Under the pieces are notes generated by a model. It ran no database searches. It saw nothing but the letters and a program-made list of their open reading frames with translations, and was not told the DNA's origin. The translations under genes and the position numbers were made by a program. Positions 18,601 to 34,256 of a stretch of 64,000 nucleotides of DNA are shown one piece after another; the first letter of the stretch is position 1; each line of letters begins with the position of its first letter. This DNA is from Lachnospiraceae bacterium (GTDB lineage Bacteria > Bacillota > Clostridia > Lachnospirales > Lachnospiraceae). The DNA is taken from contig JAJQCZ010000033.1 of assembly GCA_021202465.1 (NCBI GenBank), forward strand, positions 18,616 to 82,615. Direction: 5' to 3'.

Positions 18601-21600
18601 TCGGTGTATACTGATAATTCTGAGCGGATTTTGTCGGTTCGGTTGCTTCGCCATAGACACCTTTCTGGAGAATCACACTGGCTTCCTCCGTCAGATCATG
18701 CGTGACCGTCGAAGTGAAATTGCGGACATACAAGGTATTCGCTAACGAAGACCCGCCAGCTTCCTCCACATATTTATCCCATGTGCCATCCTCATCATCC
18801 GCACTCGGGAAGGTCAGTGTCACGTAAATCTTCAACTGAGCTGAGCTGCTGAAGATAATCTCCATATCCTCCGGCCATTTGATCCAGCTTCCTTTCGAAC
18901 CGCTTCTTTCTTCTACGATTTCCCAGGAATCGAGAGCCGTCGTTGTCGTTCCAACTTCGGCTGTCTCCGTGCTGCTGATCGTAATTCCCTCACCAGCTTC
19001 ATAACTCAAAGTCACATTGGTGTCTTTCACCCACTCGAACACGTCATACGTCTCCGGCAAAAGATCCCACAAATCACTACCGCTTAATGTGAAAGTGCCT
19101 CCGCCATGACCGGACAAAATCAGACAATATGTTACTGTCTCACCAGCTGAGATCGTGCTGTAGTCATCATCATCATAATCGTCAGCTCCTTCTGCACCTG
19201 TGCTGTTATCGTATTCGTCCACCTTCGTCGCATTGGTTTCGTCCTCATCCACAACAAGATGCTTTTCGAAATCGATCAATGTGCCGCCGCCCCAGATGCC
19301 ATCATAAATGCGTGATCCGGTTCTGTCATTCATCCAGACTACATTGCCGATGGAATACTCGATCTCATCCTCTTCATATTGCACCAGGGTCTGATAACTC
19401 ACTTCGATGGTATAGTTACCGCCGCCAAGATGGTCGAAATACCATTTGATTTCCGTATGATATCCGGTATACTCAGTGCCGTCTTCCGATTCCGTCTCCT
19501 CAGCGGAATATTCTACGGTAATCGTGTCTGCCATCAGCAACGAATCGCCAGAGGTGCCAACCAGGACATTTTCATATGTTCCTACACCAAGGACATAATA
19601 CTTAGTCCCATCCTCAGCCTCATAAATCGTCACTGTTCCTGTCGAATTGGAATTCTCATCATAAAGCATATCAGTGATACTGGTGTTGCCACTGTTTTCA
19701 GTATACAGCACTAACAGCTGCTGACTCCCGTAAATATCATCTACCATAGGCAGATCGTCATATTCGCCGTTCCCCTCATGCCTGAAGGTCAGTAGATACT
19801 CCAGAACATCTCCATCCGCGGCGGACGGATCCGAGGTCAGCAATACACCGTCTTCATTATACACTGCCTTGCTGATATAAGCTTCCCGACTCAGTGTCGT
19901 TGATGCATTCGCAGTTTTTACATTCCCGGATTTACCTGTAGTTCTGACATAGGCATTATTTCTTGCCGTATAAGTTGCCGTCAGATCATATCGGTTCTGA
20001 CGATCATCATTCAGCAGCATCTGGAATGTATCTTTTGTTGTCGCAGGGATCTCGAAAGTCAGGCTTTCTCCTGCACTCAGTTCAAAACTGGAAGTCACTG
20101 TATTACCGTCTTCATCTGTGGTTGTCTCACCACCACCTAAGACCCATGTACAGGTGTAGGTAGCGGTATTTGTGACACCATATCCCAGCGTCTGCAGAAT
20201 ATCAGCGAGACTACTTCCTGATTCTGTGACAGCCTCACCTTCTGCATTCACATAGGATACAGTATAGCTTTGGCTCTCAGAATCATAGGTAATGGTCAGT
20301 GTAACCGTTATTTCCTCCTCAGAGGAAGTATTTCCGGCATTCAGATTGACCGTACCTTCTCCCGTGGTATCTGTAGCAGTGTCTGACACACCAAGGACGG
20401 CTTTCGCAATTTCTATAGTCAGCGGATAGCCTCTCTCTGCTGCCTCTTCAAACATTCCCTCCATATTTTCCGCGCTGATATATGTATACTGATTGAGTAC
20501 ATCCACCAACGTATACTTGCCTGTATCAGACGCAGTATATTTCAGGGCCTTTGTATTCGATACAACCAGCGTGTAGGTTACATCCTCCCCGAAATAGCCG
20601 CTTGTCTTATCGACCGATTTGCTGAGATCCAATGTACCTTCCTCAACCTTTATATCCTTTTCCACGGAAGCAGTGTCTTCCTGATCCTCACTGTAGGTAT
20701 ATTTGAAGGTTGCCGTCACACTATTGTCAATTTTTTTGTAAACGGTCGTCGTCGTTGTTGTTTCTTCGGTCGTGTCATCATCATTTTCTGTCGTGGTGGT
20801 TGTTGTTTCCTCCGTTGAAGCAAGTTTCGATACATCTGTGACGACTGTTGCCGCCGGAGCAATGCTCAGAGCTACCGTGGTAGCACTCAAAGAACTGCTA
20901 CTGGAAGAATTTTTCACCGTCCAATACAGGACCACATATCCTTCCATATCTTCACTGCCTTCGACATATTTCACATTCACACCGGACAGCGACACATCGG
21001 TACCGTCGGAAATAGCGATTGACGCAATCTGCACTTTTTCCCCGTTTGTATCATAGATATAAAGCGAACCGCTCTGATAGTACACTTCATTATCCTTGAT
21101 AGCCTGCAGAACCGTATCATCCCACGTCACACCTTCCGGCAACGTAAGAACATCCTCATAGTATGCGCTGGTGGCAAGGTCACGCCCATATGTAAACGTA
21201 TCGCCGGAGATGCTGGTCTCTATCTTATAAGTCAATGAAGAAGCAAAGCGAATTGTTCCATCCTCCGCATAGAGTGTCACAGAATCCTGCGTAGCATTCC
21301 CTTTCGTCACCTCATATGTATCCGGCGACGTCTCCCACCAGGCCTGAATTGTCTCCGCGCTATCAGTGGGCTGTGTATTTGTTCCAGCCGTTTTTGCCTC
21401 GTCTGCCGTCAGCACTTCGCCCCAGATCGTCAGCCCACCGCCATCGGAAGTTACATTCGGGTAGTAGGTCGTGAGCGTGAAGCTGGTGGTTTCCTCTGTT
21501 GACACTGTAAATTCCAGATAAACCGTATTAGGGTCATCTGTTGTATGCCATTCACCATTATATCCTTCTGCATTGTAATCCAACACAGAATCAATATCCG

Positions 21601-24600
21601 TATAGGACAGGTAGACGCGATATACGTGAGTGTCAGTCGCACTTGGCGCCGACGCGGCGATATTAATGGTTAACGTTTCACCAGTCAAAAGTGTGTATCC
21701 ACCCAAAGCATCTTCATCCTCAGACCAGGTGCCTCCACTGACATCAATAACCAGTTTTGCCGACTCATTATCATCAGCAGTCATTGTCAGACTGGTAGAT
21801 CCATCCATATCTTCCGCAGATGCTCCGGTACCGGACGCACCGCCCAATGCCGTGTTGTAGAAGGGCTCGTAGCCGATATTTTCAGTTGCTCCGGTAAAGA
21901 GAGTCAGCGCCCCTTCTACTGTTGTGACAGTCTGGTTTGTTTTTGCATCGGTCACACTGGCCAGCTTTGTAGCGTTTGCCATAGCATAATCGCCCAACTG
22001 AGTAATTTGAGAAGCGTCCTCAAATGTTAACGCCGTCAGGTTTATTGCGTCATGGAAAGCGTTCGATGCAACAGAAGTTACAGTATACTCGGTATTGTTT
22101 CCATCCTCTGTATCCACGATCGTGGCGTAGACAGTATAATCTGTCAGCTTTTGCGTTTCGCCGTTCTCATCCAGATACGTCGACGGGACATAGAGTAAAG
22201 AAGCGGTCTTTTCCTCTGTATTAATCTGATATATTGCTCCATATTCATCAATATAAATATATCCGGAAAGATTTTGCAGTACTGTTGAGGTGGCACTGTC
22301 AAATGCGCCTTCCGTCACGGTAATAAAATTCGGTCCCTGGAATGTAATGCTGCTTGCATACCGAACAATATAATCAAAATTTGCAATCAGAGTGTCGACA
22401 TCAGTTCCAATGATAAGATCATAAGTCGAAACAGATTTGAATACATAATTATACTGTGCACTCCCCGCAATGTTTGTGGCATTTTCCGCATCATAAATCA
22501 ATGTGTTCAAATTCAACATTGTCGAGTTAGTATTCAGACCATAGATGGATGTTGTTCCACTGGGTATGGTAAGCGTTTCCAAAGACGTACAGCTATTAAT
22601 ATAACTCTGTCGCAGGGAAAGCCCCTCTGTATCCGGCAATGTAAGCGAGGTTAACTTCGAGGAGTTTTCAAACATATTGTTGCCGCTCGCATTTGCCCCA
22701 TCCTCAAACACAACAGATTCCAGCGAAGAGGACTGGGCAAACTCATATTGTCCGAAATTGCTTCCTCCATAAGTCTGCACAGAACCTGGCACAATAATCT
22801 CTTTTGTTCCCGAAAGATATTCCAGAGCCCTCGAAGCAATATTGGTCGTACTGTCCAAAAGCCTGTAACTATCTGCCTCCCGTGCGGAAGGATAATCCGC
22901 CAGTGTAGTCAAGTCTGCTGTATACAAAACACCATCAACAATTGTATATGTCCCATTCGTCTGACAGCCGTCCTCTGTTGTAGTTACGCCCTCTCCATAA
23001 AACTCATAGGAGGAGGCATTCAAAAATGCACCGCCGCTTACATATGTCACGCTGCCGGGCAGAGATACGGTATAAGAGACTCCGCTCGTCTGATTGTAAA
23101 AGGCAAACATACCGACAGACTCTACGCCCTCTTCCAACGTAACCGAGGTCAGTGAGCTCGCATATTGAAATGCATACGCCTCAATAGTTTTGACATTTCC
23201 CGGAATTGTAACGGACGACAGTTTTCTCACATACACAAACGCATTTTGACTGATATATGTGACATCCGATCCTATATCCAGACTTGTTATAATATTATTA
23301 TTAAACGCATATTTTCCTATTCCGGTAATTCCATCTTCAATAACCAGCGCCACACCGTCTATTCCGCTATTATTATTAATATAGCTAAACCAGGGTGTAC
23401 TGGAGCCGCCTGAATAATCCGGAATAGCTCCGGATCCGGAGATCACCAGCGTTGTCAGGTTCCCATCGATGTCCTGATAAAGCGTCCAGGTAATGGCATC
23501 TGCATCACCGTCCGCATTCGCCATTGTACCGCTTGCATACACGGTTTCCGAAGAGGTCACTGCATAGATCGAAAAATGCTCTGCATCAAAGGCAATTGCA
23601 CCATCTTCCGCTTCAGAATCTACTTTCTCCGCATCGCCCTCGTCGGGGATATAATATACATCGTTGTTACCGCTGATCGCATCAGACTGGATGGTGACGG
23701 AAACAGTGCCATCCTCCGGTTCGTACTCTGTGCCATCGGCATAGTAAATGGAGATATCGAAAGCCATCACAATGTTAAGCTCGTCATTTTCCACCTCTAC
23801 AGGGGTGGCGGTGACGGTGGCTCCCTCCGGCAGCATACCGGAAACGGTGATGATAGCACTATCTGCTGTAACGGTCAGAGTCTGCTGCGTCAGGGTCACA
23901 CTCTCCTCCTGTGCAGCCTTGGTATCGTTATCAGTCTCCTTCGTTTCAGGCTTGCTATCCGCTTCTGTATCATTCTCAGCCTGAGTTTCAGAATCAACGG
24001 ATGCTTCCGCCTCGGCACTCTCTTCCTCCAGCTCCTGCGCCGCCGCCACGGTGCCATAGCCGACGATCTCGCTGTCGTTCAGATCATATTTGTTCTTGCA
24101 GACGGCGTCTGCATCATCCTCTTCATAGTCGCCCTCGATGACCGTCAGTTGTTCCTTCTTTTCATTGACAACGCTGACGATGCCGACACGGTCGATCTTT
24201 CCGTCTTCGTCGGTATCAAAGAAGACCAGGTCGCCGGCGACAGGAATATAATCCTCCGCGGCCTGATACAGGTCGATCTTCTTCAGGGAGACAGACCAGG
24301 CGTACGCGCCAGTGGCCTCCGGGAAGTCCTTCTTGGAAATGCCGGCATAGTGCAGGCAGAACGAGGCAAACATGGCATCCCAGTCGCCATACTCATTTCC
24401 AGCCCAGGCGCCGTAACGGGTATAACCCTTGCGGGTCTCCTCATCATCGTCCAGGGTGAAGTTGGCCGTGCTCTCGGTGTAGCCGATCTGGCTCTCCGCC
24501 ACGGCAACGACATCGTCCGCCCAGACGCCGGTCAGCTTCTCAGGCAGCGTCTTCTCCCAGTCGTCGGAAGTCTCCACGTCGGCCGTCTCATCGATCAGGC

Positions 24601-25117
24601 ACTCGACGGTATGGGTATGCTCCTCCAGACCGCAGGTCAGCTGCTCCTCATAGCATTCGTCTGTATGGGTGTGTCCCTCAGACTCCTCCAGGTCGCAGAC
24701 CAGGACCTTCTCGGTCTCATAGCAGGCATCCGTATGCGTATGACCCTCAGACTCCTCCTGGCCGCAGATCAGGTTGCCATCCGCGTCATAGCAGTCGTCG
24801 GTATGCGTATGGCCTTCAGATTCCTCCAGACCGCACACCAGGGCCTTCTGCTCTTCGTAGCAGGCGTCTGTATGTGTATGGCCCTCAGACTCTTCCTGGC
24901 CGCAAACCAGGACCTTCTCATAACAGTCCTCGGTGTGCGTATGCTCCTCCAGGCCGCAGTAGGTCTCGTTGGTCATGGCAATGCCGGTCGCGTGCAGCTG
25001 CCAGGCGACGCCCGCCGTCACCAGCAGCGCCAGCGCAGCCAGCATCGCCGCCATCCGCTGAGACCTGCGGTGCTCCGCCCGGAACTTCCGCACGTAGGAA
25101 TTCACTATATTCTTCAT
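15659..25117 (-). CDS. Giant (3152 aa) LPXTG-type cell-wall-anchored multidomain adhesin
   Basis: N-terminal signal/anchor helix, then Cys/His repeats, a CHAP-like domain and BspA-type leucine-rich repeats (residues ~540-1000, e.g. IGKYAFNNN, ISQNAFVY, IEAYAFQYASSLTSVTL). A long Thr/Ser/Asp-rich beta-type region follows. The C-terminus has a SpaA/CnaB-like domain (GAVFALYS...YYLVEVKAPDGYNL) and LPKSGGIG plus a TM helix plus RRRRSI. Confidence 0.9.
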   Translation of the reverse strand: MKNIVNSYVRKFRAEHRRSQRMAAMLAALALLVTAGVAWQLHATGIAMTNETYCGLEEHTHTEDCYEKVLVCGQEESEGHTHTDACYEEQKALVCGLEESEGHTHTDDCYDADGNLICGQEESEGHTHTDACYETEKVLVCDLEESEGHTHTDECYEEQLTCGLEEHTHTVECLIDETADVETSDDWEKTLPEKLTGVWADDVVAVAESQIGYTESTANFTLDDDEETRKGYTRYGAWAGNEYGDWDAMFASFCLHYAGISKKDFPEATGAYAWSVSLKKIDLYQAAEDYIPVAGDLVFFDTDEDGKIDRVGIVSVVNEKKEQLTVIEGDYEEDDADAVCKNKYDLNDSEIVGYGTVAAAQELEEESAEAEASVDSETQAENDTEADSKPETKETDNDTKAAQEESVTLTQQTLTVTADSAIITVSGMLPEGATVTATPVEVENDELNIVMAFDISIYYADGTEYEPEDGTVSVTIQSDAISGNNDVYYIPDEGDAEKVDSEAEDGAIAFDAEHFSIYAVTSSETVYASGTMANADGDADAITWTLYQDIDGNLTTLVISGSGAIPDYSGGSSTPWFSYINNNSGIDGVALVIEDGITGIGKYAFNNNIITSLDIGSDVTYISQNAFVYVRKLSSVTIPGNVKTIEAYAFQYASSLTSVTLEEGVESVGMFAFYNQTSGVSYTVSLPGSVTYVSGGAFLNASSYEFYGEGVTTTEDGCQTNGTYTIVDGVLYTADLTTLADYPSAREADSYRLLDSTTNIASRALEYLSGTKEIIVPGSVQTYGGSNFGQYEFAQSSSLESVVFEDGANASGNNMFENSSKLTSLTLPDTEGLSLRQSYINSCTSLETLTIPSGTTSIYGLNTNSTMLNLNTLIYDAENATNIAGSAQYNYVFKSVSTYDLIIGTDVDTLIANFDYIVRYASSITFQGPNFITVTEGAFDSATSTVLQNLSGYIYIDEYGAIYQINTEEKTASLLYVPSTYLDENGETQKLTDYTVYATIVDTEDGNNTEYTVTSVASNAFHDAINLTALTFEDASQITQLGDYAMANATKLASVTDAKTNQTVTTVEGALTLFTGATENIGYEPFYNTALGGASGTGASAEDMDGSTSLTMTADDNESAKLVIDVSGGTWSEDEDALGGYTLLTGETLTINIAASAPSATDTHVYRVYLSYTDIDSVLDYNAEGYNGEWHTTDDPNTVYLEFTVSTEETTSFTLTTYYPNVTSDGGGLTIWGEVLTADEAKTAGTNTQPTDSAETIQAWWETSPDTYEVTKGNATQDSVTLYAEDGTIRFASSLTYKIETSISGDTFTYGRDLATSAYYEDVLTLPEGVTWDDTVLQAIKDNEVYYQSGSLYIYDTNGEKVQIASIAISDGTDVSLSGVNVKYVEGSEDMEGYVVLYWTVKNSSSSSSLSATTVALSIAPAATVVTDVSKLASTEETTTTTTENDDDTTEETTTTTTVYKKIDNSVTATFKYTYSEDQEDTASVEKDIKVEEGTLDLSKSVDKTSGYFGEDVTYTLVVSNTKALKYTASDTGKYTLVDVLNQYTYISAENMEGMFEEAAERGYPLTIEIAKAVLGVSDTATDTTGEGTVNLNAGNTSSEEEITVTLTITYDSESQSYTVSYVNAEGEAVTESGSSLADILQTLGYGVTNTATYTCTWVLGGGETTTDEDGNTVTSSFELSAGESLTFEIPATTKDTFQMLLNDDRQNRYDLTATYTARNNAYVRTTGKSGNVKTANASTTLSREAYISKAVYNEDGVLLTSDPSAADGDVLEYLLTFRHEGNGEYDDLPMVDDIYGSQQLLVLYTENSGNTSITDMLYDENSNSTGTVTIYEAEDGTKYYVLGVGTYENVLVGTSGDSLLMADTITVEYSAEETESEDGTEYTGYHTEIKWYFDHLGGGNYTIEVSYQTLVQYEEDEIEYSIGNVVWMNDRTGSRIYDGIWGGGTLIDFEKHLVVDEDETNATKVDEYDNSTGAEGADDYDDDDYSTISAGETVTYCLILSGHGGGTFTLSGSDLWDLLPETYDVFEWVKDTNVTLSYEAGEGITISSTETAEVGTTTTALDSWEIVEERSGSKGSWIKWPEDMEIIFSSSAQLKIYVTLTFPSADDEDGTWDKYVEEAGGSSLANTLYVRNFTSTVTHDLTEEASVILQKGVYGEATEPTKSAQNYQYTPTDVNLNYFNNQDSYFRYVVYYVTVYNAGNTKLYLSELTDTLPDGYTYVQLVGSTSGLLNGQVYQSVSTKSAITVTGGSSENLLITGLPNDTSYKTATITKSGDGSEISFTVTGSSGSYALSYDEAVQMYYLEKGEALVFGYVCQVGSYSDTGDTATNTISMDYYDYLGMGVSQVAEEDSNYNLTGTDVVYNSETYYANTSNDGSRDVTEDGNTITLSSTVTQTLAEIVPGISKSFVGYKDSTGTIHTENVTSLYGYSSEVVYWSATLTNDGGRSITDYTVTDTMPYPYVFEGDVTMTVYSSSEAMSASDVTLFSIGTRTANDSSVTITSGNKSYTLTINGDSLSIKYGNYGGDSYMVISLSTDDDGNEILTVRFEGVYFAIPESGKIILNYSSRSPSGGTTYSTYVNNVKLDPDGAFDTKGEGILETDEEGDMDAVSANASITVSGAYATSSVKSVTELGSESSPTGNTASSDSSTNSIVLSAADSTFRYSLNVHNLTDIAMTKLVVIDNLPAEGDIYAVGTTERGSEFTVKLADTPNFTVYVTTEDENGNETETVLNSQYYEIQYSTTETEFTTDDYAGGNSSSRWLTWNSDVSADNVRAIRIIITDEGGTQIPAGATVTIEFDAEASSENGTSIEPSAIAWNNFGYHYALKDIDTELTAMPLVVGVQVPSAPSLTKKLVGLDGTAYEAESDTEFTFVIYEGKEMTDSNGSSYTTQSDLVDALKKLSGDDAREYRIVTLTVKEGESSGTLSLIGSNGLVTGDRWWTWEEDAPYTIAEFQSGDSYELKSWSASGGTSSDVANGNSYTFTYYRAKELRMTCTNTYEVWDLTLTKVDADSYDEDTETYTNTLKGAVFALYSKTKPESTVTSSNGAETTVVVDGVTWYLYSEKTTDSDGTINWTDLTEDSYYLVEVKAPDGYNLSYTSHKVTRTSNSETIIATNKAGYELPKSGGIGTWLYTIVSFILCGGAVLALYRRRRSI
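24599..24958 (-). repeat. Coding repeats: 7 copies of C-x-x-EE-(SEG)-HTHT-x-x-C(Y)
   Basis: Residues 54-173 read CGLEEHTHTEDCY / CGQEESEGHTHTDACY / CGLEESEGHTHTDDCY / CGQEESEGHTHTDACY / CDLEESEGHTHTDECY / CGLEEHTHTVECL. The repeat is also visible as ~72-nt DNA repeats. Confidence 0.85.
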
Positions 25118-25193: not shown

Positions 25194-25796
25194 TTATGTT
25201 TCATCCGTCCGGCTGCACCGGACAGTCACTCTCGTTCTTCCGCCGATGGTACAGGTAAACAGCGTCAGATCCCATTCACCGGTAATCATTTCCTCCACAT
25301 CGGTGGGCTGCAAGATGATCACCTCTGCCACCTGGTAGTGAAATACATTTCCGTTGACATCGGTGAAGGTCAGCGTGTCGCCCGTTTCCAGGTATTTCAG
25401 ATTCCCGAAATGCCGGGAGTAGTTGTGCCCGCAGATGACCAGGTCGTCTGTCCACACGGATCCGGTGTACCGCCCCGGCGCGATCCGCAGCCCCTCATAG
25501 CTCCACTCGGAGAGGATGGGCAGCTCCAGATCCAGCGAAGGGATGGTCAGCGTGCCGATGTAGGCGCGTCCGTCGATCTCCACGGTATCCATCACGCCGT
25601 CCTCCGGGCGATTGTAAATGGGGATGTCCACGCCTGTTGAGCGCTGCTCCGTATCCCACTGCAGCTCCTCCAGCGCCTCGTCTGCATTCTTCCCGGTCTG
25701 AGAGTCCTCCCAGCGGTTGTACAGGATCAGCGACAGAGCTCCCAGCAGCAGCACCAGCCCCAGTACCATGCAGAGGATACCGCCCTTACGCCGCAT
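25194..25796 (-). CDS. Short sortase-family transpeptidase (class uncertain)
   Basis: 200 aa with an N-terminal TM helix, the catalytic-type motifs ICGHN (His), LTLFTCT (TLxTC Cys) and RVTVRC (Arg). Its start overlaps the stop of the upstream pilin gene. Confidence 0.8.
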   Translation of the reverse strand: MRRKGGILCMVLGLVLLLGALSLILYNRWEDSQTGKNADEALEELQWDTEQRSTGVDIPIYNRPEDGVMDTVEIDGRAYIGTLTIPSLDLELPILSEWSYEGLRIAPGRYTGSVWTDDLVICGHNYSRHFGNLKYLETGDTLTFTDVNGNVFHYQVAEVIILQPTDVEEMITGEWDLTLFTCTIGGRTRVTVRCSRTDET

Positions 25797-26559
25797 GTCC
25801 CTTCTTCTTATCTGTCCGGACCAGCACCCAGCCCAGGGTAAACAGCACCAGGCCTCCCGCTGCCAGGATTGGGATCGGCCAGTTCAACTGTCCGGTCTGG
25901 GGGAGCGTGGTCGTCGTTCCGGTGGTCTTCGTTGTTTTCCCTGTCTTCGTGGTCGTAGCTGGCTCTTCCTCCGTCGCGGCCTCTGTTGTGGCCTCCTCGG
26001 TGGGTTCCTCGGGCGTTTCCGGAAGGACTGTCACCTCCACCTTCGGGGTCGCATCCACCGCATAGACCCAGGCTTCGCTCTCCTCACTGGGAAGCGTCAC
26101 CACAAAGGGAGAAAGGGTGGCGAAGCCGGTGGACTGGGTGGTCTGCACCACCAGATAAAGCCCCAACTCCAGCTCGTCAAAGAGGACCGTGCCGTCCTCC
26201 CCGATAGAAGCGGTGATCCCCTCGGCCTCCGTCGTCCCGATATACTCCGCCAGTGCGGATGCCAGGGACGTATCCTCCACATCCAGGTCGCCGGTATAGT
26301 CGGCAAAGACGTCTGTCGGCTCATAGGCCATACTGCCGTCATCCAGATACAGCGCCGCCACCTCGTAGAGGGTGACCGCTCCGTCGGTCATGACATTGCC
26401 GTCGTTATCCGCGAGCGTCAGGCTCACGGAACCGGTCTGCGTGAAGTCCAGTGACGCGCTGTCCGCGGCACAGACATTCTGACTCACGCCGCAGGCCAGG
26501 GTCAGCGCCAGCAGCAGGGCGCCGACCAGACGAGCTGTTCTTGTCATCGTCTTCATCAA
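25786..26559 (-). CDS. Small LPXTG pilin subunit (single CnaB/SpaA-like domain)
   Basis: Signal peptide, then LYLVVQT...SPFVVTLP...WVYAVDATPK (pilin-motif-like Lys), a Thr/Glu linker, and LPQTG plus a TM helix plus KKKGH. Confidence 0.8.
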   Translation of the reverse strand: MMKTMTRTARLVGALLLALTLACGVSQNVCAADSASLDFTQTGSVSLTLADNDGNVMTDGAVTLYEVAALYLDDGSMAYEPTDVFADYTGDLDVEDTSLASALAEYIGTTEAEGITASIGEDGTVLFDELELGLYLVVQTTQSTGFATLSPFVVTLPSEESEAWVYAVDATPKVEVTVLPETPEEPTEEATTEAATEEEPATTTKTGKTTKTTGTTTTLPQTGQLNWPIPILAAGGLVLFTLGWVLVRTDKKKGHAA

Positions 26560-27473
26560 GATTCCTCCTTTTTTCTCTTCCGGCGTGATCCCGCCAGCAC
26601 TCCGATCAGAAGGAGCAGCAGTAAGGGCACCGCCACGATCGTTGCAACCAGTATTGTATCCACCTGATATGCCTCCGCGGTCACGCGGATCAAAGCATCG
26701 TCGGCATTTTCTATACGCACCCCGCGTACCAGCAGCCGATGGCTGTTGATGCCGTAGGGAGTACAGGTCATCAATGTACAGTAATCTTTTCCTTCTTCTA
26801 TATAAAGGTTCTCGATCTCATCCGGCTCTACGATGGAGATCTGATCGATTTCATAGGTAAGAACCTGATTCAGCACGGTGATCGTGAAAGTATCTCCGAC
26901 CTCCAGCTGATCCAGATCCGTAAACAGCAGCGCACTGGGCAATCCCCGGTGTGCGGAGATTACGCAGTGTGTGCTTTCTCCTCCGACAGGAAGACTGGTT
27001 CCCTCCAGATGTCCGGCTCCGTTCTGAAGGACCGACGTATCGGTCCCGTGGTAAATGGGCAGCTCCACGTCGATCTTGTCAATCGTGACATAGCCCATGA
27101 TTCCGGTTCCGGTGATATTCAACAGGTCCCAGTAATCCTCATCAACCAGATCCGGGACGGAAATCGTCTTGTCAGACCCCAGCTCCGCCAGCCGTTCATT
27201 GTATGCCTCCGCCGCTTCAAAATAGGAGGAATAGTCTTCTTCCGTCATCTCGGAAACGGCTTCCTCGTAGGTGGCGATCGCCTTCGTCTGTGCCCGGGAA
27301 TTCCACCAGTTGCTGACAGAGGGATACAGCATCACGGCCAGACCGATAAAAAACACAATCACCAGAAGGATGGTTCCCCGCCTGTCATTTCTTCTCCGGT
27401 TTCGTTTTCTTCGTTGTCTTCGTGTTCGTTTAACTTCGTTATCTTCTCGGCTCGTCTGGCGTTTCATGTCCAT
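26556..27473 (-). CDS. Class C (pilus-assembly) sortase
   Basis: ELPIYHGT, VISAHRG and TLMTCTPYGINSHRLLVRG motifs, with N- and C-terminal TM helices as in class C sortases. Confidence 0.9.
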   Translation of the reverse strand: MDMKRQTSREDNEVKRTRRQRRKRNRRRNDRRGTILLVIVFFIGLAVMLYPSVSNWWNSRAQTKAIATYEEAVSEMTEEDYSSYFEAAEAYNERLAELGSDKTISVPDLVDEDYWDLLNITGTGIMGYVTIDKIDVELPIYHGTDTSVLQNGAGHLEGTSLPVGGESTHCVISAHRGLPSALLFTDLDQLEVGDTFTITVLNQVLTYEIDQISIVEPDEIENLYIEEGKDYCTLMTCTPYGINSHRLLVRGVRIENADDALIRVTAEAYQVDTILVATIVAVPLLLLLLIGVLAGSRRKRKKEES

Positions 27474-27644: not shown

Positions 27645-30524
27645 TCAGTTCCGGCTCATTCTCCGGCGGGTGATCAGCAGAACCGCCGCGCCGAGAACCA
27701 GAATGCCGCCGACCAGGTAGAAGAGCGTAGTGCCCATACCACCGGTGCCGGGAAGGGTCGAACCGGCTGCGTTGGCGACGAGGACAGAAATCACAGGAAC
27801 TTCAAACTCCGTTACGGTCGTGATTTCAGATTCTTCACCATCGCTTTCGGTGCTCACCAGCTTATAAAGCCCCTCAGCATATGTATCCGGCTTGACTGTT
27901 TCTTCGAACGTTCCATCTTCGAGCTTTGTATACACAGTACCGTCGTATCCATCTAACTCTTCCTCAGTAATAGCTGCGAAATACCGGGTAGTCGTGATAG
28001 TGGACGTGCTGTACGTCACAGAACTCGAATCCATCTTGGCTTCCAGGGTTTTAGGATCCGTCAGCAGGACATAGCCATCGGGAGCCTTAACCTCAGTGAG
28101 GGTATAGGTTCCGATATCCACACCCTTGATGATAATCTGACCATTGGAGTTGCTGACAAAGGTTGACGTTGCGCCTTCAGTATTGGAATCGGACGTGTAA
28201 TTATAATACTGAACCGCTCCGTTACCATCGGTCACCGGCACCGCATAAATCGCGTTTTCGTCGGCATCCACAAGCGTGAACTCCGCACCCTCCAGAGCCT
28301 CACCAGTCTCCTCGCTGGTCTTGTAAACGCCAAGTGCGTAGGTGTAGGTCACGGTAGTACGCTCTTCGGTTTCATGGTTCAGATCACTGCCGCTGGGATA
28401 TGTCGGATTTTCCGGATCAGGATCATAGGGCTTTTCATGGCCCACCACAGAGTAATCGTAAATCGCACTGTTCACGTTACCATCACCTGCGATAACTGCA
28501 TCCTCGTTAATAATGGCATCATAAGTCAGATGAATCTCACAGTTCGGGTAGAGACCGTTACCATCTTCATCCGCCCAGATAATGGTGGCTTCGATCAGGG
28601 TGTAGTCCTTTTCACCGTCCTCACCATATACCTCACAAGTAAACAAAGTACCAATCACATTTTCTTCATCATCCTTAATTGTATAAGTGACTGAGTTTGT
28701 ACTCTTTGAAGGATTGTCTTTCGCAACATTATATTCCACATCATTGATGGTTAATTTAAAGCTATTGCCATCCAGATCAAAGCCTGGATCCATCTTATCG
28801 TAGATGTAGTAATATTTAACCTGATCGGTATAAGTGTTCTCATCATTCTCAACATGACCTTCATCTGCCACATTATTCACAGCGTCAATGCTGACATCAA
28901 AGGTCACGGTGTCGCCAAAAGCACCAGTAGAGACGGTGCTCTCGGTACCATCCTTGTTGAGAATAACCTTACCGAAGTCCTCATCCTCAGGCTCATCTGG
29001 CTCGTCTTCTGTAGGGTTCTTTACAACATTGGTCTTATAATAATTCTCACCGTCAAAGCTGTAATCAGCGGTATTCACAATGGTGCTGTCCGTGATAGAC
29101 AGAGCCGCCTCCGTGACTTTCACCTGGAAGTAGACGGTCACAGTAGCACCGACCGCCAGGTCATCAACGACCCATTTAATATTGCCATCCGTATCCACGG
29201 CGATCGTGGTCTGATCACTGAGGGTACTGCTGGCACTGCCAGCTACATAGACGGTTCCGGCAGGCGGAGCGTCAACGATGGTCAGGTCAACCGCTTCATC
29301 TGCGGTGTTTGTGTACTCGATGGTGTAAGTCAAAGTATTACCTACATCCACCTTGTTGCCATCGATGGAGCCCTGTGTATTTTCATCTGTAGGATCATAG
29401 GTTGCATCCTTGACATCCTTGACAGGTGACTCGGGATTGTCTACGGGGTTTTCCACAACATTGGTCTTGAGGTTGTACTCATGACCAACAAGGGTCACGA
29501 CAAGGTCCGCGTCGTTAACAACCGTTCTGTTTTCAATCTTCAGTGCAGCTTCTGTGACCATCACCTGGAATTCGACCACCAGGGTGGCACCATCCTCGAG
29601 ACCTGTCACTGTCCAGGTCAGAGTGCCATCAGTGGCTGTGTTCGTAGTCCCCTCACAAACAACCAGAGACCCGTCTACCAGCTGATAGATTGCCATGCTA
29701 CCTTCCACAAACTCCGTTCCTTCCGGAGCAGCATCCGTCACAACCACTTTATCCAATGTCACACCGGAATCATTCGTGTAACTGATCTGGTAAGTCAGGA
29801 TATCGCCTACGCTCACTGTTTCTTTGTTAATATCTCTGTAAGTGGTGGTTCCATCGTCCTCGTCTACCGTCTTTTCCAGAACAGCCTTGACCGGATCATC
29901 GGGCACCGGCTCTTCGGGATCATTATCCCAGCTGGGCTCTTTAGTGTTCTTATCCGTAATGGTAGCCGTGGGGTTGGTCGTAGACAGAGAAACCACCGAT
30001 CCCAGAGAGCTGGTCACGAAATAGTATCCTAGGGGCAGATTACTGAATTTCACGGTGGAAGCCTTTGCCACGTCACTAGCAACCTCTATCGCGCCGGGGA
30101 AATAACATACGATTACATCCTCACTCTGCGCAACAATAAACGATTTGACAAATGCAATGACTTCTTCATCCGAATAGGTCGTGCCATCAGCCTTGGTTCC
30201 GATCGTCACCTGATAATCGCCGTTCGAAAGCGCTGTAAAAACAAACACATTGCCACTGGCCGCCTCCAGCACCTTCTTCTGTGCTGCAGTCGCGGTGTAG
30301 GCTGTTGCAGTCACGGTATTACCGTCTTCATCCACAGACTCACTGTAAGTTGCGTCAAACAGCTTGTAGACGTGATACGTTTCATCGATGGTCGCGTTGG
30401 TGATCGTAATAGATCCCGTCGCGCTCGCATCGGAGTCTGTCTCGTCTGCAAAAGCCGTCACAGTCATGCTGAGCGTCATGACCAGCGCCAGCAATATACA
30501 GGCAGCTCGTTTCAGTTTCTTCAT
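27645..30524 (-). CDS. Large LPXTG pilin / fimbrial adhesin (isopeptide-domain type) with two DUF11-like repeats
   Basis: Signal peptide MKKLKRAACILLALVMTLSMTVTAFA. GSITITNATIDETYHVYKLFDATY is typical of the N-terminal domain of SpaH/RrgB-type pilins. There are two ~115-aa repeats (V(S/D)VG(D/N)xLTYxIxYTN...). The protein ends with LPGTGGMG, a TM helix and RRRMSRN. Confidence 0.88.
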   Translation of the reverse strand: MKKLKRAACILLALVMTLSMTVTAFADETDSDASATGSITITNATIDETYHVYKLFDATYSESVDEDGNTVTATAYTATAAQKKVLEAASGNVFVFTALSNGDYQVTIGTKADGTTYSDEEVIAFVKSFIVAQSEDVIVCYFPGAIEVASDVAKASTVKFSNLPLGYYFVTSSLGSVVSLSTTNPTATITDKNTKEPSWDNDPEEPVPDDPVKAVLEKTVDEDDGTTTYRDINKETVSVGDILTYQISYTNDSGVTLDKVVVTDAAPEGTEFVEGSMAIYQLVDGSLVVCEGTTNTATDGTLTWTVTGLEDGATLVVEFQVMVTEAALKIENRTVVNDADLVVTLVGHEYNLKTNVVENPVDNPESPVKDVKDATYDPTDENTQGSIDGNKVDVGNTLTYTIEYTNTADEAVDLTIVDAPPAGTVYVAGSASSTLSDQTTIAVDTDGNIKWVVDDLAVGATVTVYFQVKVTEAALSITDSTIVNTADYSFDGENYYKTNVVKNPTEDEPDEPEDEDFGKVILNKDGTESTVSTGAFGDTVTFDVSIDAVNNVADEGHVENDENTYTDQVKYYYIYDKMDPGFDLDGNSFKLTINDVEYNVAKDNPSKSTNSVTYTIKDDEENVIGTLFTCEVYGEDGEKDYTLIEATIIWADEDGNGLYPNCEIHLTYDAIINEDAVIAGDGNVNSAIYDYSVVGHEKPYDPDPENPTYPSGSDLNHETEERTTVTYTYALGVYKTSEETGEALEGAEFTLVDADENAIYAVPVTDGNGAVQYYNYTSDSNTEGATSTFVSNSNGQIIIKGVDIGTYTLTEVKAPDGYVLLTDPKTLEAKMDSSSVTYSTSTITTTRYFAAITEEELDGYDGTVYTKLEDGTFEETVKPDTYAEGLYKLVSTESDGEESEITTVTEFEVPVISVLVANAAGSTLPGTGGMGTTLFYLVGGILVLGAAVLLITRRRMSRN

Positions 30525-30780: not shown

Positions 30781-31341
30781 TCAGATCCGCAGGATGACCC
30801 TGCCCACGATCTGGTCCTTCTCGATGCAGCCGATAACGCTGCTTCGGGAGTCGATCGAGGTCGATCGGTTATCTCCCATCACGAAATAACGATTCTCTGG
30901 CACCTGATAGGGATAGGTAATGTCTGTCTCGCCAAGCGACTGTTCGGTTACATACGGCTCGTCGAGAACTTCGCCGTTGACGAAGACCACTCCGTCGTCG
31001 TCTATATCGATCACATCGCCCGGTCCGCCGATGACCCGCTTCAACAGCAATTTGTTCTGATAGTAAAAGCCCACCAGGTCGCCGGTCTCGAAGTCGCCGG
31101 TCTTCACCAGGACGATGATGTCGTTGTCCGAGAGCGTCGGCTCCATACTGGTGCCGGATACCTGCAGCACCGGCAGGAACAGCGTCGCCAGCAGAACGGC
31201 GGCGGCCGCCACAACGATCAGCGCGTAGATCGTACTGCGCAGCGTCTGGCGGTATCGTTTCTGATATTGTAATCGTTCCCGTTCGGCGGTTACTTCCTCC
31301 TCAGAGGGGACATTTGCCATTTGCGGAATTCTGGGTTCCAT
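30781..31341 (-). CDS. Type I signal peptidase (S26 family), pilus-locus associated
   Basis: TM anchor, then SGTSMEPTL (Ser), LLKRVIG (Lys) and GDNRSTSIDSR boxes. Confidence 0.88.
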   Translation of the reverse strand: MEPRIPQMANVPSEEEVTAERERLQYQKRYRQTLRSTIYALIVVAAAAVLLATLFLPVLQVSGTSMEPTLSDNDIIVLVKTGDFETGDLVGFYYQNKLLLKRVIGGPGDVIDIDDDGVVFVNGEVLDEPYVTEQSLGETDITYPYQVPENRYFVMGDNRSTSIDSRSSVIGCIEKDQIVGRVILRI

Positions 31342-31404: not shown

Positions 31405-32139
31405 CTATGTGTCAGATTTTTCAAACATGCGGTTTGCCAGCTCCGGATTCTCTTTAAGAATTTTCTTTGCCTCCCGAACGAAGGCCGCCCGCATCCGCTT
31501 CACGTCCTGTGTTGTCTTCTCCCGCTGCGCCGTGCATTCCGTCTCAGTCTGTTCCCGCAGCGCCGTACATTCCGTCTCGGTCTGTTCCCGCAGCGCTGTA
31601 CATTCCGTCTCGGTCTGCTCTCGCAGCGCGACACATTCTGTCTCCGTTTGCTCCCGCAACGCGGCACATTCTGTTTCCGTCTGTTCCCGCAGAGAGCGGC
31701 ACTCCTCTTCGACCCGCCGCGTCTGTTCCGCAGCTGTCTCCTTCTCGGACTGCACCGATGCGAGCAGCTCTGCCGCCGCGTCCTTTTCCGCCTGCGCCGA
31801 TGCAAGCAGCTCCGCCGCCTGCGCTCCGGCTTCTGCCAGCCTCTGCTCTGCCTCGCTGTCTCTCTGCTTCACAGAGTCCAGATATTGCCGGGCCGCCGCC
31901 TCGGCATCCTCAAAGATATGATTCAACCCAACAGCCGCCTCTGCGATCGAACCGGCTTCCTCTATCCGCAGGAGTTTGTCATCCAGCTGACGCTGCAGCT
32001 CTTCATTTTCTGCGCGAAGCGTCTTTTCATTCTGCTGCAGAGCATAAATAATCTCGATCAGCTCCGTGCGGTTCATCCTTCGCAGGTCTTTTTCTGCTCC
32101 TCTTGCCATGCTTCTCTCACTCACTCCAACCCACGGCAC
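31405..32139 (-). CDS. Coiled-coil protein with five LREQTETECxA decapeptide repeats (start uncertain: 32139, 32109 or 32076)
   Basis: Ala/Glu/Gln-rich heptad-like sequence with no signal peptide. It overlaps or abuts the stop of the upstream gene. Function is unknown. Confidence 0.6.
   Translation of the reverse strand: MPWVGVSERSMARGAEKDLRRMNRTELIEIIYALQQNEKTLRAENEELQRQLDDKLLRIEEAGSIAEAAVGLNHIFEDAEAAARQYLDSVKQRDSEAEQRLAEAGAQAAELLASAQAEKDAAAELLASVQSEKETAAEQTRRVEEECRSLREQTETECAALREQTETECVALREQTETECTALREQTETECTALREQTETECTAQREKTTQDVKRMRAAFVREAKKILKENPELANRMFEKSDT
31525..31692 (-). repeat. 30-nt in-frame tandem repeat, about 5.5 copies
   Basis: GCATTCCGTCTC(A/G)GTCTGTTCCCGCAGCGC(C/T)GTA-type units, read directly. 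They encode LREQTETEC(A/V/T)A. Confidence 0.85.
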
Positions 32140-32929
32140 GCTGTTCCCGCTCGGCCAGCCGGTCGCTGGCCTGATCCACCAGAACGCTGATGTTCTCCCA
32201 GATACTCTCCGTCGTCGTCTGATGCAGATGCTGCAGACAGCGCGGCGAACATTTCTCCGGTGCCACGCGGGCTTCTCCGGCCAGACCGCGAATCTCGCGG
32301 CTCAGGTTGCTCCGGTCGAGCTCACCGCCGCCCCGCGTACGGAAAATCATTCCGCTGCCGATGCCCTGCCGTTCGGCATAGTTCAGCAGCTCGCCGCGCA
32401 GGGGTGCCGGAATATGTACCGACGCAGACCCCAGGAGTAATCTTCCTTCCCGGACAGCTTCCACCGTCACCTGCGAGAGCTGGGCGATCATCACACCGGT
32501 CCCCGCGAAGAGCTTGACCAGCAGATACGCTCTCTCCCGGTTCAGGCGGCGCGCCGCTCCCAGCAGACGCAGGTATTCGCTGCGTGTCAGCTCCGGCCGC
32601 ACCTCCGGCTCTCCCTTCAGGGACTGGCTCACCTGGAATTCCCGGTGACCGTAATAATCCAAAAAGCCGTTGACCGCCGCGGTGAAGGAATTGACCGTGC
32701 TGGCGGAATAACCCTTCGCCAGCAGCTTCATCCGCATCTCTTCCAGTGTTCCCCGCCGGATCCGTCGGTCCTCCGGCAGGATCTGAACCATCTGCGACAG
32801 CTTGCTCCGGTACATTCTGAGGGTTTCCTGTGACCGGCCCTGCTCCCGCAGTACATCCAGATAGCGGGCCAGCATCGGCTCGCTGACCACCAGACTCGCC
32901 TCCGGAATCTTCTCTCTGGTCTCTTCCAT
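32117..32929 (-). CDS. Tyrosine-recombinase-like protein lacking all catalytic residues (pseudo-recombinase)
   Basis: Paralogue of ORF 33370..34206 (shared YLRLL/YKRLL, VTVEAV, IFRTRxGxxxDRSN). However TGIRISEL has become TGVMIAQL, HNLRHLF has become PRCLQHL, and the GHSRIETTRIY region is unrelated, with no Tyr. Confidence 0.75.
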   Translation of the reverse strand: MEETREKIPEASLVVSEPMLARYLDVLREQGRSQETLRMYRSKLSQMVQILPEDRRIRRGTLEEMRMKLLAKGYSASTVNSFTAAVNGFLDYYGHREFQVSQSLKGEPEVRPELTRSEYLRLLGAARRLNRERAYLLVKLFAGTGVMIAQLSQVTVEAVREGRLLLGSASVHIPAPLRGELLNYAERQGIGSGMIFRTRGGGELDRSNLSREIRGLAGEARVAPEKCSPRCLQHLHQTTTESIWENISVLVDQASDRLAEREQRAVGWSE

Positions 32930-32967
32930 CCCTCACACTCCCTTCGCAGGGATTCCCCGTCCCCGGT

Positions 32968-32993
32968 AAACCGCAGACTATTCATTCTGCGGT
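32968..32993. repeat. Left inverted repeat / candidate recombinase core site
   Basis: AAACCGCAGACTATTCATTCTGCGGT. Arms ACCGCAGA and TCTGCGGT flank the 8-nt spacer CTATTCAT. Confidence 0.85.
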
Positions 32994-33181
32994 TCGACCC
33001 GAACTGCATTCACACAGTAAAGAAAATAGCGCCGATCACAACGTCTCCCGACAGAGCAGCAAGTGAATCGGCGTACAAAAAACAGACCTGCGGTGTTTAT
33101 CGTCCTCCTCAGGCTATTTTTGTGTGTCAATCAGAGAAGAATATGCTTCATAAGGCCCGGAATCTGTCACCTTTTGTCGCC

Positions 33182-33220
33182 AAAAAGGTTCAAAAAATGT
33201 TCAAAAAAGCTTCAAAAAAA
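33182..33220 (+). promoter_or_regulatory. Four phased A-tracts (UP-element-like / curved DNA) upstream of the -35
   Basis: CAAAAAGG TTCAAAAAATG TTCAAAAAAGC TTCAAAAAAAGG. The A-tracts start at about 33182, 33192, 33203 and 33214. Confidence 0.6.
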
Positions 33221-33232
33221 GGGGAAATTTCC

Positions 33233-33261
33233 TTGTAATTCCGATGTATGTAGGCTATAAT
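33233..33261 (+). promoter_or_regulatory. Sigma-A-type promoter TTGTAA-17-TATAAT
   Basis: -35 at 33233-33238, 17-nt spacer, -10 at 33256-33261. Read directly. Confidence 0.65.
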
Positions 33262-33305
33262 AGGCAATGTATGGCACGCAATAAGAATTATGTTGTGCAC
33301 AGCTT

Positions 33306-33331
33306 ACCGCAGAATGAATAGTCTGCGGTTT
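33306..33331. repeat. Right inverted repeat / candidate recombinase core site
   Basis: ACCGCAGAATGAATAGTCTGCGGTTT is the exact reverse complement of 32968-32993. The spacer ATGAATAG is inverted relative to the left site. Confidence 0.85.
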
Positions 33332-33340
33332 TTCTTTTTC
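33307..33340 (+). terminator. Plus-strand terminator formed by the right repeat hairpin plus an external T-tract
   Basis: CCGCAGA-atgaatag-TCTGCGG followed by TTTTTCTTTTT. The T-tract lies outside the repeat. Confidence 0.5.
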
Positions 33341-33369
33341 CCGCCCGCCGGGTCACGCCCCCCGCCGTT

Positions 33370-34206
33370 TCACAGGACCAGCCTCATCTGCTCCAGGACG
33401 CGCTCATGGGAGGCGGCGCTGACGGCGACATAGATGCGCGTGGTCTCGATGCGGCTATGGCCCAGGACGTCCGCCAGGTGCGCGAGATTCCTCTCGACCG
33501 CGTAGAAGCAGCGGGCAAAAAGATGACGCAGATTGTGGGGGAATACCTTGTTTCGATCAACGCCCGCCGCCTCGCAGAGCCGTTTCATCTGATGACAGAT
33601 GTTGCTCCGGTCCATGGGGCGCCCGCTGCGGGTGCGGAAGATCACTCCGCCGTCGATGTCCCGGCCCCCGGCATAGTCCCGGAGGCGGCGGCGCAGATCT
33701 TTGGGAAGCAGGACGGTGCGGCTCTTTCCCTTCATGTGAATCTCCGCGCGCCCGGCTGCCACCGCCTCCACGGTGATGTATGGCAGCTCGCTGATGCGGA
33801 TGCCGGTGCTGCCCAGCGTCATCATCAGGAGACACAGCCGCTCATCTCCCTGCCTGCGCGCCGCCTCGAGAAGCCTCTTATACTCGGCTTCCGTCAGTTC
33901 CCGCTTCTCCTCGACGAAGGCGGCCCGCTGCACCTTCACGAAATGCACCCGCAGTCCCTCCAGGTCCCGGAACCGGAGGTAGGCGTTGACGGCGGACAGA
34001 ACACCGTTGACCGTCTGCGCCTTCCGCTGCTCCATGAGAGCATCCCGCCAGGCCAGGAGCCTCGGCTTCGTCAGCGGCTCCCCGCCCAGCCAGTCCGCCA
34101 GCCTCCGCAACGCCATGCCGTATTTCCGGATTGTAGCGCGCGCCTTCTCATTCAGTGCCAGTGCCTCCTCGAATTCCCGGATACGTTCCTCTGTAATGTA
34201 TTCCAT
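33370..34206 (-). CDS. Tyrosine site-specific recombinase (XerC/D-like, intact active site)
   Basis: TGIRISEL (Arg), HMKGKSR (Lys), HNLRHLFA (His-x-x-Arg) and LGHSRIETTRIY (His, Tyr) are all present. Confidence 0.88.
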   Translation of the reverse strand: MEYITEERIREFEEALALNEKARATIRKYGMALRRLADWLGGEPLTKPRLLAWRDALMEQRKAQTVNGVLSAVNAYLRFRDLEGLRVHFVKVQRAAFVEEKRELTEAEYKRLLEAARRQGDERLCLLMMTLGSTGIRISELPYITVEAVAAGRAEIHMKGKSRTVLLPKDLRRRLRDYAGGRDIDGGVIFRTRSGRPMDRSNICHQMKRLCEAAGVDRNKVFPHNLRHLFARCFYAVERNLAHLADVLGHSRIETTRIYVAVSAASHERVLEQMRLVL

Positions 34207-34221: not shown

Positions 34222-34256
34222 GCCGAAGATCGCCGCTTCGGCACTTTTTTCTTTTT
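34222..34256 (+). terminator. Plus-strand intrinsic terminator just beyond the 5' end of the recombinase gene
   Basis: GCCGAAG-atcgccg-CTTCGGC followed by ACTTTTTTCTTTTT. There is no plus-strand ORF upstream, and it lies upstream of the ABC-F promoter. Confidence 0.6.

Follow-up and report, generated by a model that had tools for sequence, protein, structure and literature searches.

A probable promoter-inversion switch, captured in the OFF orientation, upstream of a sortase-pilus operon in a Lachnospiraceae bacterium

The DNA analysed here, referred to as the window, is a stretch of 64,000 nucleotides from a Lachnospiraceae bacterium (assembly GCA_021202465.1, contig JAJQCZ010000033.1, positions 18,616 to 82,615). 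It contains a gene for a tyrosine recombinase on the minus strand, whose end is separated by 38 nt from the first of two inverted repeats enclosing a 312-bp segment, and a run of minus-strand genes for sortases, pilin-like proteins and a giant adhesin that lies beyond the second repeat. An earlier note, made from the sequence alone, had interpreted the enclosed segment as a promoter cassette that recombination could invert, and the present analysis follows up that proposal. The coordinates of the features are collected in Table 1.

The left repeat, AAACCGCAGACTATTCATTCTGCGGT (32968-32993), was found by repeat search to be the exact reverse complement of the right one (33306-33331) in 26/26 nt, with a gap of 312 nt between the two. 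Each copy is an 8-8-8 palindrome, in which the arms ACCGCAGA and TCTGCGGT enclose an asymmetric 8-nt centre that reads CTATTCAT or ATGAATAG; both the search and the sequence bear out the arm-spacer-arm layout described in the earlier note. When up to 3 mismatches were allowed, only these two sites were recovered from the 64-kb window (0.00 expected, from 100 shuffles), and the degenerate pattern ACCRCAGA-N8-TCTGYGGT returned the same two sites only, window-wide, against an expectation of 0.04. As in an inverton, inverted repeats that are unique in the window flank a short intergenic segment.

The interior of the cassette holds only short open reading frames (ORFs), of 65 and 50 amino acids (aa). 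A protein look-up of the 65-aa product, made to find contigs in either orientation, returned no record, and indels of 1 and 10 nt, not multiples of three, distinguish the interior of the window from that of other strains. On account of these observations the interior is considered to be non-coding, in agreement with the earlier statement that it has no credible ORF. The promoter named in that statement, TTGTAA-17-TATAAT, was also recovered at 33233-33261 on the plus strand, with 10 of the 12 consensus positions matched. The arithmetic given for its flipped state is right as well: inversion converts a position x to 66299-x, which would place the promoter at 33038-33066 on the minus strand, with its -10 at 33038-33043 and the ATG at 32929 some 100 nt away. 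As far as the sequence goes, the cassette carries an internal promoter able to face the regulated genes once flipped.

Pfam analysis of the recombinase revealed a Phage_integrase domain (7.6e-26) together with an N-terminal SAM-like domain. The catalytic residues R137, K159/K161, H224, R227, H250 and Y259 are all present and are invariant in the alignment of homologues, so that the description of this gene as intact holds for the full catalytic set, and a competent site-specific recombinase appears to be available from these residues. The best NCBIfam models are XerA and XerD, none of which reaches its cut-off; the scores of the Xer equivalog models are 125.4 bits against 220 for XerA, 96.7 against 329.6 for XerD, 91.6 against 335 for XerC and 45.5 against 267 for XerS. 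By sequence, the protein is homologous to the XerC, XerD, XerA and XerS families and is a member of none of them. The models of the FimB/FimE-type DNA invertases are likewise not reached (NF007370, 25.9 bits against 221; NF007371, 21.6 against 222), and the closest entries in the PDB are XerC-like 4a8e, XerA 5hxy and XerD 1a0p. At E<=1e-20 there are 6884 homologues, the majority with a length of exactly 278 aa and an identity of 60-68%, and their hosts are Lachnospiraceae, Oscillospiraceae and relatives.

The orientation of the cassette was compared among related genomes. The metagenome-assembled genome (MAG) GCA_021202965.1, designated L100, encodes a recombinase of the same 90%-identity protein cluster as that of the window and has the same gene order, i.e. 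rpoD, ABC-F, recombinase, cassette, recombinase-like ORF, coiled-coil protein and signal peptidase. Identity with the window amounts to 92.2% and 97.3% in the two flanks, and the interior of L100 is 78.1% identical to the reverse complement of the window interior as against 49.6% on the same strand. Over the 80 nt of promoter and leader one base differs between the two; TTGTAA-17-TATAAT is itself unchanged, and the L100 copy is directed at the operon. L101 (GCA_965328865.1), L001, L002 and L085 are oriented as the window. L001 and L002, like L003, are Logan assembly contigs whose proteins are identical to those of the window, and the start of L003 coincides exactly with the inner edge of the left repeat, a break of the kind that a de Bruijn graph makes where two different sequences adjoin a repeat.

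A second case is provided by the locus of P0075, a 63%-identical homologue of the recombinase, of which several independent assemblies were available. The flanks and repeats of L086 are identical to those of L087 and L088, and the interior is exactly reverse-complemented; contigs L090 and L091 of this locus (55 and 68 kb) end exactly at the repeat. Both orientations are thus found in nature, in the window, L001, L002 and L101 versus L100 and in L086 versus L087/L088, and it is the flipped cassette of L100 and the two states of the P0075 locus that bear out the claim of a phase-variation switch captured OFF. Contig L084, a 97%-identical variant, agrees with the L100 ON junction over 5 nt, which is too short a match for strong evidence.

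These observations indicate, with a probability of about 0.85, that the locus is a promoter-inversion phase-variation switch (inverton) for the sortase-pilus/adhesin operon and that it stands in the OFF state in the window. In the proposed mechanism, the recombinase would bind the two identical palindromic sites of 24-26 bp (arms of ~8-10 bp, asymmetric centre), and strand exchange by the Xer-like enzyme would take place inside the asymmetric centre between the palindromic arms, by analogy with Xer/dif and Cre/loxP. Because the centres are oppositely directed, the exchange would invert the 312-bp interior, which is predicted to carry one strong promoter and, upstream of it, a terminator-like hairpin that folds on both strands. 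In the OFF state, the transcript from the promoter facing the recombinase would meet the repeat hairpin and the U-tract outside it and would stop after ~60-75 nt; the recombinase gene would be spared antisense transcription, and the internal hairpin would block read-through from the recombinase gene into the operon. In the ON state, the repeat hairpin would be followed by UUUACCGGGG, without a U-tract, so that transcription would continue via a 5' leader of ~100 nt and read, in order, the dead-recombinase gene described below, the coiled-coil protein, the signal peptidase, the pilins, the sortases and the giant adhesin, from 32929 down to 15659. We infer the identity of the catalyst, the starts and stops of the transcripts, the switching rate and any role of the dead paralogue.

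Several points weigh against this reading. The ON example, L100, is a different, closely related MAG, and the evidence for inversion comes from the comparison of assemblies; an exact scan of the JGI metagenome collection for the repeat gave 0 matches. The promoters, the terminators and the ends of the transcripts are predicted only from consensus sequences. Transcription in the ON state might still be attenuated by the repeat hairpin with its UUU, weak promoters are possible in the intergenic gaps of the operon (e.g. 30524-30781), and the internal hairpin is weaker and more bulged in the window than in relatives.

The occurrence of the same arrangement elsewhere was evaluated in 80 recombinase loci from GTDB representative genomes, with repeat pairs assessed in 67 of them. 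The contig ends within 250 nt of the recombinase gene on the downstream side in 14/80 loci and on the upstream side in 1/80. Of the 67 loci, 60 have an exact inverted-repeat pair of 14-33 nt that begins 0-50 nt past the stop codon of the recombinase and encloses a gap of 165-390 nt, mostly 200-280 nt. The repeats of the relatives share the palindromic design, with the forms ACCACAGAAT-N4-ATTCTGTGGT, or ACATAAT-N4/6-ATTATGTGGT or -ATTATGTTGT. The best promoter of each cassette occupies a mirrored position, pointing toward the recombinase in 45 cassettes and toward the cargo in 14. Alignment of 15 promoter-oriented cassettes gave a uniform succession of far repeat, variable stretch, A-run/hairpin/T-run, A-tracts, -35, -10, ~45 nt and near repeat. 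The cargo genes are diverse yet related in theme; among them are capsule genes and genes for BspA-LRR and Listeria-Bacteroides-repeat surface proteins, for SLH and GGDEF/EAL/HD proteins and for response regulators. Judged by sequence conservation, the recombinase and its adjoining repeat-flanked promoter cassette of roughly 250 bp are a conserved module of Clostridia.

The assemblies carry further marks at these repeats. In L068 (4751-5264) a palindromic chimeric contig has the 3' end of the recombinase gene on both sides of the cassette; both junctions must therefore be present in the reads, as such an assembly would otherwise be impossible. Other assembly signatures are seen in L050:4646-5017 and L033:4850-5284, some cassettes have a promoter at both ends, and contigs end at the repeat in L010, L013, L020, L038, L044, L071, L078, L079, L090 and L091. 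Signatures of this kind could reveal invertons without reads.

The module also bears on the possibility that the repeats are dif-like sites, serving chromosome-dimer resolution or the integration of a mobile element, with no gene switch involved. The Xer-like recombinase and the dif-like arm-spacer-arm layout of the sites speak for it. The sites are, however, inverted, 312 bp apart and enclose a promoter; across genomes the module precedes many different surface or signalling operons, both orientations are observed, and the Xer equivalog scores are far under the cut-offs, all of which leaves this explanation scarcely credible.

A further explanation, already raised in the earlier note, is that the two hairpins are related intrinsic terminators and that the intervening DNA never inverts. 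Each repeat indeed forms a stable hairpin (-12.7 kcal/mol), and the proximal copy together with TTTTTCTTTTT scores as a Rho-independent terminator on the plus strand, with an 8-bp stem containing 5 G-C pairs; the distal repeat, with the tail TACCGGGGAC, does not. The left copy is without a U-tract on either strand and sits upstream, not downstream, of a gene. The identity of 26/26 nt in inverted arrangement, including the loop, would be needless for terminators, and the interior is flipped in L100 and at the P0075 locus. It is thus very improbable that the hairpins are terminators only. The right copy does score as one, and the terminator role of the repeat is real, but it accompanies inversion and does not replace it.

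The U-tract TTTTTCTTTTT is located outside the invertible segment. Among the 60 loci with a repeat pair, a U-rich tail (at least 6 U in 10 nt) was found on the recombinase side in 23 and on the cargo side in 3 (Wilcoxon p = 0.007), and almost all close relatives have it on the recombinase side. The earlier statement that the promoter fires antisense into the recombinase gene therefore stands as regards its rightward direction, but not as regards the outcome, as a canonical terminator, conserved in relatives, intervenes between the two. The OFF-state promoter, as predicted from these elements, probably yields only a short RNA of ~60-75 nt and not an antisense transcript across the recombinase gene. 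A second plus-strand intrinsic terminator (GCCGAAGATCGCCGCTTCGGC then ACTTTTTTCT) was noted at 34222-34252, just beyond the start of the recombinase gene, where it precedes the ABC-F gene promoter at 34311-34339; it would halt an antisense transcript escaping the switch terminator, and on the minus strand its hairpin falls in the 5' leader of the recombinase.

Another explanation is that both orientations are functional and the present state is more than simply OFF, its promoter giving rise to a small RNA or to antisense control of the recombinase (orientational control, as for fimE). The promoter is strong, the window and L100 share a near-identical leader of ~45 nt from the -10 to the repeat, with 1 mismatch over 80 nt, 45/60 reference genomes have the present orientation, and the terminator at 34222-34252 lies beyond the recombinase gene, all of which would suit this view. 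On the other hand, no Rfam family was found in the region, the search of 32800-33500 at E<=1 giving chance matches only (eukaryotic long non-coding RNA and small nucleolar RNA) and no known small RNA or riboswitch, and the predicted RNA is little structured beyond the repeat hairpin (z -1.3). The conserved terminator suggests that antisense transcription is prevented rather than used, and the leader doubles as the ON state's 5' untranslated region, which alone could explain its conservation. A function for the present orientation is accordingly considered unlikely.

The hairpin inside the cassette was analysed in the same way. It folds on both strands, with energies of -16.9 and -15.5 kcal/mol and z values of -2.7 and -2.4, and in the equivalent hairpin of relatives the stem sequences differ yet compensate (GCCTGCAT/ATGCAGGC, GACCTGCG/CGCAGGTC and others). 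The CTGCGGT at 33088-33094, which the earlier note took for an extra half-site, is present in the sequence, but it is the 5' arm of this conserved terminator-like hairpin; its role as an accessory recombinase site was rejected, as the equivalent position in relatives is the co-varying hairpin. A crude hairpin scan of all cassettes was noisy in the AT-rich DNA and was used only in combination with the cassette alignment.

Even with inversion accepted, the switch could be a relic that inverted during the divergence of the lineages and is now locked OFF in the strain of the window. The four near-identical contigs (window, L001, L002 and L101) are all OFF, and the 82%-identical L085, with its degenerate distal repeat, may be locked. 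The window nevertheless has two flawless repeats, crossover centre included, and an uninterrupted recombinase ORF with the full catalytic set; the break of L003, placed exactly at the repeat's inner edge, is what a mixed population predicts, and L084 carries the first 5 nt of the L100 ON junction. A locked state is considered quite unlikely for the window on these grounds. In L085 itself (MAG GCA_021202715.1), the operon-side repeat at 5208-5231 reads ACCCCGGAAGCGATATTCTGCGGC for the expected ACCGCAGAAGCGATACTCTGCGGT and the promoter is directed at the recombinase, which may reflect either a switch locked OFF or noise in the MAG consensus.

The genes that the flipped promoter would serve were then assigned. 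As the earlier note had proposed, a pilus operon lies downstream. It encodes sortases, SpaA/LPXTG proteins, a pilin and an adhesin, but its first gene, 32117-32929, turned out to be a catalytically dead paralogue of the recombinase. Two proteins have a Sortase domain and three have SpaA domains, one of these with an LPGTG anchor, and a SpaH/EbpB-like pilin scores below the cut-off; the sortases are assigned by domain alone. No strong promoter was found on the minus strand in the intergenic gaps of the operon, in keeping with the earlier note, which had found no other strong one for the run. Within the coiled-coil protein, the 33-bp tandem repeat at 31520-31692 (minus strand) encodes REQTETECxAL units, and the orthologue lengths called for L001/L002, L100 and L101 are 234, 223 and 212 aa, respectively, which suggests that the copy number of the repeat varies between strains.

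Table 1. Features of the switch and of the adjoining genes, with positions in the window
Feature	Position	Strand	Remarks
Site-specific tyrosine recombinase, 278 aa, Xer-like, two domains; presumed invertase	33370..34206	-	Pfam
Intrinsic terminator for the OFF-state promoter (predicted)	33306..33341	+	8-bp repeat hairpin, -12.7 kcal/mol, plus TTTTTCTTTTT
Recombinase-proximal inverted repeat, palindromic core-type site	33306..33331		ACCGCAGA-ATGAATAG-TCTGCGGT plus TTT
Recombinase-side junctions in the alternative orientations			TCTGCGGT joined to AAGCTGTG versus TCTGCGGT joined to TCGACCCG
Invertible interior, 312 bp, non-coding	32994..33305		Reverse-complemented in L100 relative to the window
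Sigma-70-type promoter TTGTAA-17-TATAAT, now facing the recombinase gene	33233..33261	+	10/12 consensus positions
Three phased 11-bp A-tract repeats (AAAAAGGTTCA), UP-element-like	33182..33219	+	Just 5' of the -35; period 11, 3.5 copies
Internal A-run / hairpin / T-run, resembling a bidirectional terminator	33070..33128		Contains CTGCGGT, 33088-33094
Operon-proximal inverted repeat	32968..32993		Minus-strand hairpin followed only by TTTACCGGGG, without a U-tract
Catalytically dead recombinase paralogue, 270 aa; first gene of the switched operon	32117..32929	-	
Coiled-coil repeat protein, 244 aa	31405..32139	-	33-bp repeat, 5.2 copies, at 31520-31692
Type I signal peptidase (S26)	30781..31341	-	Pfam Peptidase_S26, 5e-35
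Surface protein, 959 aa, SpaA and DUF11 domains, C-terminal LPXTG-type anchor	27645..30524	-	Ends with LPGTGG, a hydrophobic stretch and RRR
Sortase	26556..27473	-	Pfam Sortase, 7.7e-25
SpaH/EbpB-type pilin-like protein	25786..26559	-	NCBIfam NF033902, 2.5e-15, below cut-off
Second sortase	25194..25796	-	Pfam Sortase, 4e-16
Adhesin, 3152 aa, BspA-type LRR and SpaA domains; last gene of the same-strand run	15659..25117	-	

The paralogue is 32% identical to the recombinase, and hhalign gave a homology probability of 100% over residues 14-253 only. Its active site is lost: M stands in the place of R137, R in that of H224 and Q in that of R227, the KGK motif with the Lys-bearing hairpin is deleted, and the C-terminal segment with the His and Tyr is swapped for a long helix ending in ...EQxAVGW, so that the R-K-H-R-H/W-Y set of an active tyrosine recombinase is not retained in ORF 32117-32929. 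The AlphaFold2 (AF2) model (mean confidence, pLDDT, 91.9) predicts that the two-domain Xer/lambda-Int fold is kept. The protein belongs to a conserved family of its own, with ~90 clusters, in which EKxNPRCLRKLYQ-type motifs replace KVFPHNLRHLFA. Six members of 447-457 aa (P0122, P0123, P0124, P0126, P0128 and P0130) bear, at the N terminus, an additional and incomplete duplicate of their own C-terminal domain.

Members of this family follow the cassette in two other lineages as well, L062 and L074. Another member, P0137, which is 48% identical to the paralogue, leads the genes that follow a serine recombinase (Resolvase, 195 aa) and a segment of ~130 bp flanked by the 10-bp repeats GTGGGTTGCA/TGCAACCCAC (e.g. 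L092:3778-3954). This segment occurs in both orientations among the assemblies, in L092, L093, L097 and L098 versus L094, L095 and L096, and in the latter three a promoter, TTGCAA-17-TAGAAT, faces the P0137 gene. The cargo of the P0137 locus consists of surface-polysaccharide genes, encoding an ABC-2 transporter, a DUF4422 glycosyltransferase and an acyltransferase. A further member of the family ends a pilus operon, with no switch nearby. The dead paralogue may have a DNA-binding regulatory role; since the family also leads an operon behind a serine-invertase switch, this role may be a general one in phase-variable surface operons and not bound to a single invertase.

Invertons as a type are well known. 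The present analysis adds to the earlier note the breadth of the family and its uniform architecture, the sites that double as terminator stems together with a conserved internal insulator, and the leader gene for a dead recombinase. A literature search found no description of the recombinase-cassette family or of the dead paralogue, with an earlier cataloguing of such invertons possible (Jiang et al. 2019, PhaseFinder), and the repeat motifs were not found in those supplements of the hCom2 paper that were examined.

Among known systems, fimS of E. coli, with FimB/FimE, is an invertible element of ~314 bp with the fimbrial promoter inside it, flanked by the recombinase gene(s) on one side and by the fimbrial operon on the other. 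The locus of the window resembles it in the adjacent tyrosine recombinase genes and in the ON/OFF control of an adhesive appendage. FimB and FimE are, however, short proteins of roughly 200 aa, and the window recombinase falls outside their family, with the 25.9 and 21.6 bits given above; the fimS repeats are of 9 bp, whereas those of the window are 26-bp palindromes that are also terminator stems. In the window, moreover, one active recombinase is accompanied by a dead paralogue inside the operon, and the appendage is a Gram-positive sortase pilus. A summary of the fimS switch is found in PMC2784873.

In C. difficile, RecV operates the cwpV, flgB, cmrRST and pdcB switches (PMC2784873, PMC13464465, PMC6837544). 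The likeness lies in a tyrosine recombinase of Clostridia acting on short inverted repeats around a segment of 150-200 bp, in termination setting the OFF state at cwpV, and in a cargo of surface proteins and of cyclic di-GMP and response-regulator genes, as in the family of the window recombinase. RecV differs in being without the N-terminal domain (PMC13464465), the window recombinase having two domains, and the cwpV switch is promoter-less and forms a terminator (PMC2784873), whereas the window switch contains a promoter. Furthermore, recV is far from its targets and serves several switches in trans, whereas the window recombinase adjoins a single switch.

The Tsr/Mpi invertases and the UpxY/UpxZ leader genes are the counterparts known from Bacteroidales. 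There, too, the invertase is often adjacent and the first switched genes encode regulators; compared by description only, those systems differ in phylum, promoter type and repeat motifs, and the leader gene of the window is a dead recombinase, not an antiterminator. The Bacteroidales invertible promoters are invertons of gut commensals that drive surface-structure operons (PMC11892184), and surveys of gut invertons report novel repeat motifs in Clostridia-like Firmicutes, with no description that could be matched to the family of the window recombinase (PMC11892184, PMC11602134). The Xer/dif systems (XerA, XerH, XerS) provide the closest sequence and structure matches and share the two inverted arms of ~10 bp with a short asymmetric centre; they have one site at the replication terminus for dimer resolution, whereas the window has two inverted sites around a promoter, for inversion. 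The mpl promoters of M. penetrans are an example of switches with a Xer-like invertase. According to PMC2268961, an adjacent Xer-like recombinase, Xer1 of M. agalactiae, inverts DNA at the vpma locus and switches surface proteins. Compared by description only, the Mycoplasma systems differ in shuffling multiple genes or in having many small promoter switches with shared recombinases.

Lachnospiraceae and Oscillospiraceae are dominant gut commensals whose surface variation is little understood. If the proposed switch is real, sortase pili and a 3152-aa adhesin would be phase-variable in such a host, with a bearing on colonisation, immune recognition and phage susceptibility. A 278-aa recombinase gene directly followed by a palindromic repeat would predict an inverton and a likely contig break in metagenomes, and the compact arrangement of a recombinase, two 26-bp sites, a promoter and inbuilt terminators offers a candidate genetic switch for engineering Clostridia. 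The dead paralogue as leader gene is the most novel lead on how such switches might be biased or coordinated. A more far-reaching proposal, tentative and on balance doubtful, is that the locus goes beyond a copy of fimS and is one case of a portable, self-insulated module in use across gut Clostridia, in which the core sites would serve as terminator stems, the fixed U-tract would set the terminating orientation, the internal hairpin would insulate, and the dead paralogue, as the first ON-state product, would either act back on the switch so as to lock or bias it, or cross-regulate other phase-variable loci, as a new class of orientation-dependent accessory factor.

Further observations concern the genes around the locus. 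Downstream of the operon, on the minus strand, there is a PD-(D/E)XK transposase-like ORF (14510-15346), followed by a further SpaA-domain protein gene (13143-14414, minus), which has a 10/12 promoter match ahead of it at 15380-15352 and may be a separate or a disrupted pilin gene. On the other side, two overlapping ORFs of 89 and 93 aa (36101-36632, plus strand) resemble an antitoxin-toxin pair of the RelB/YoeB type, and their equivalents in L101 match Pfam RelB and YoeB_toxin. This pair is strain-variable, as L100 lacks it between rpoD and the ABC-F gene.

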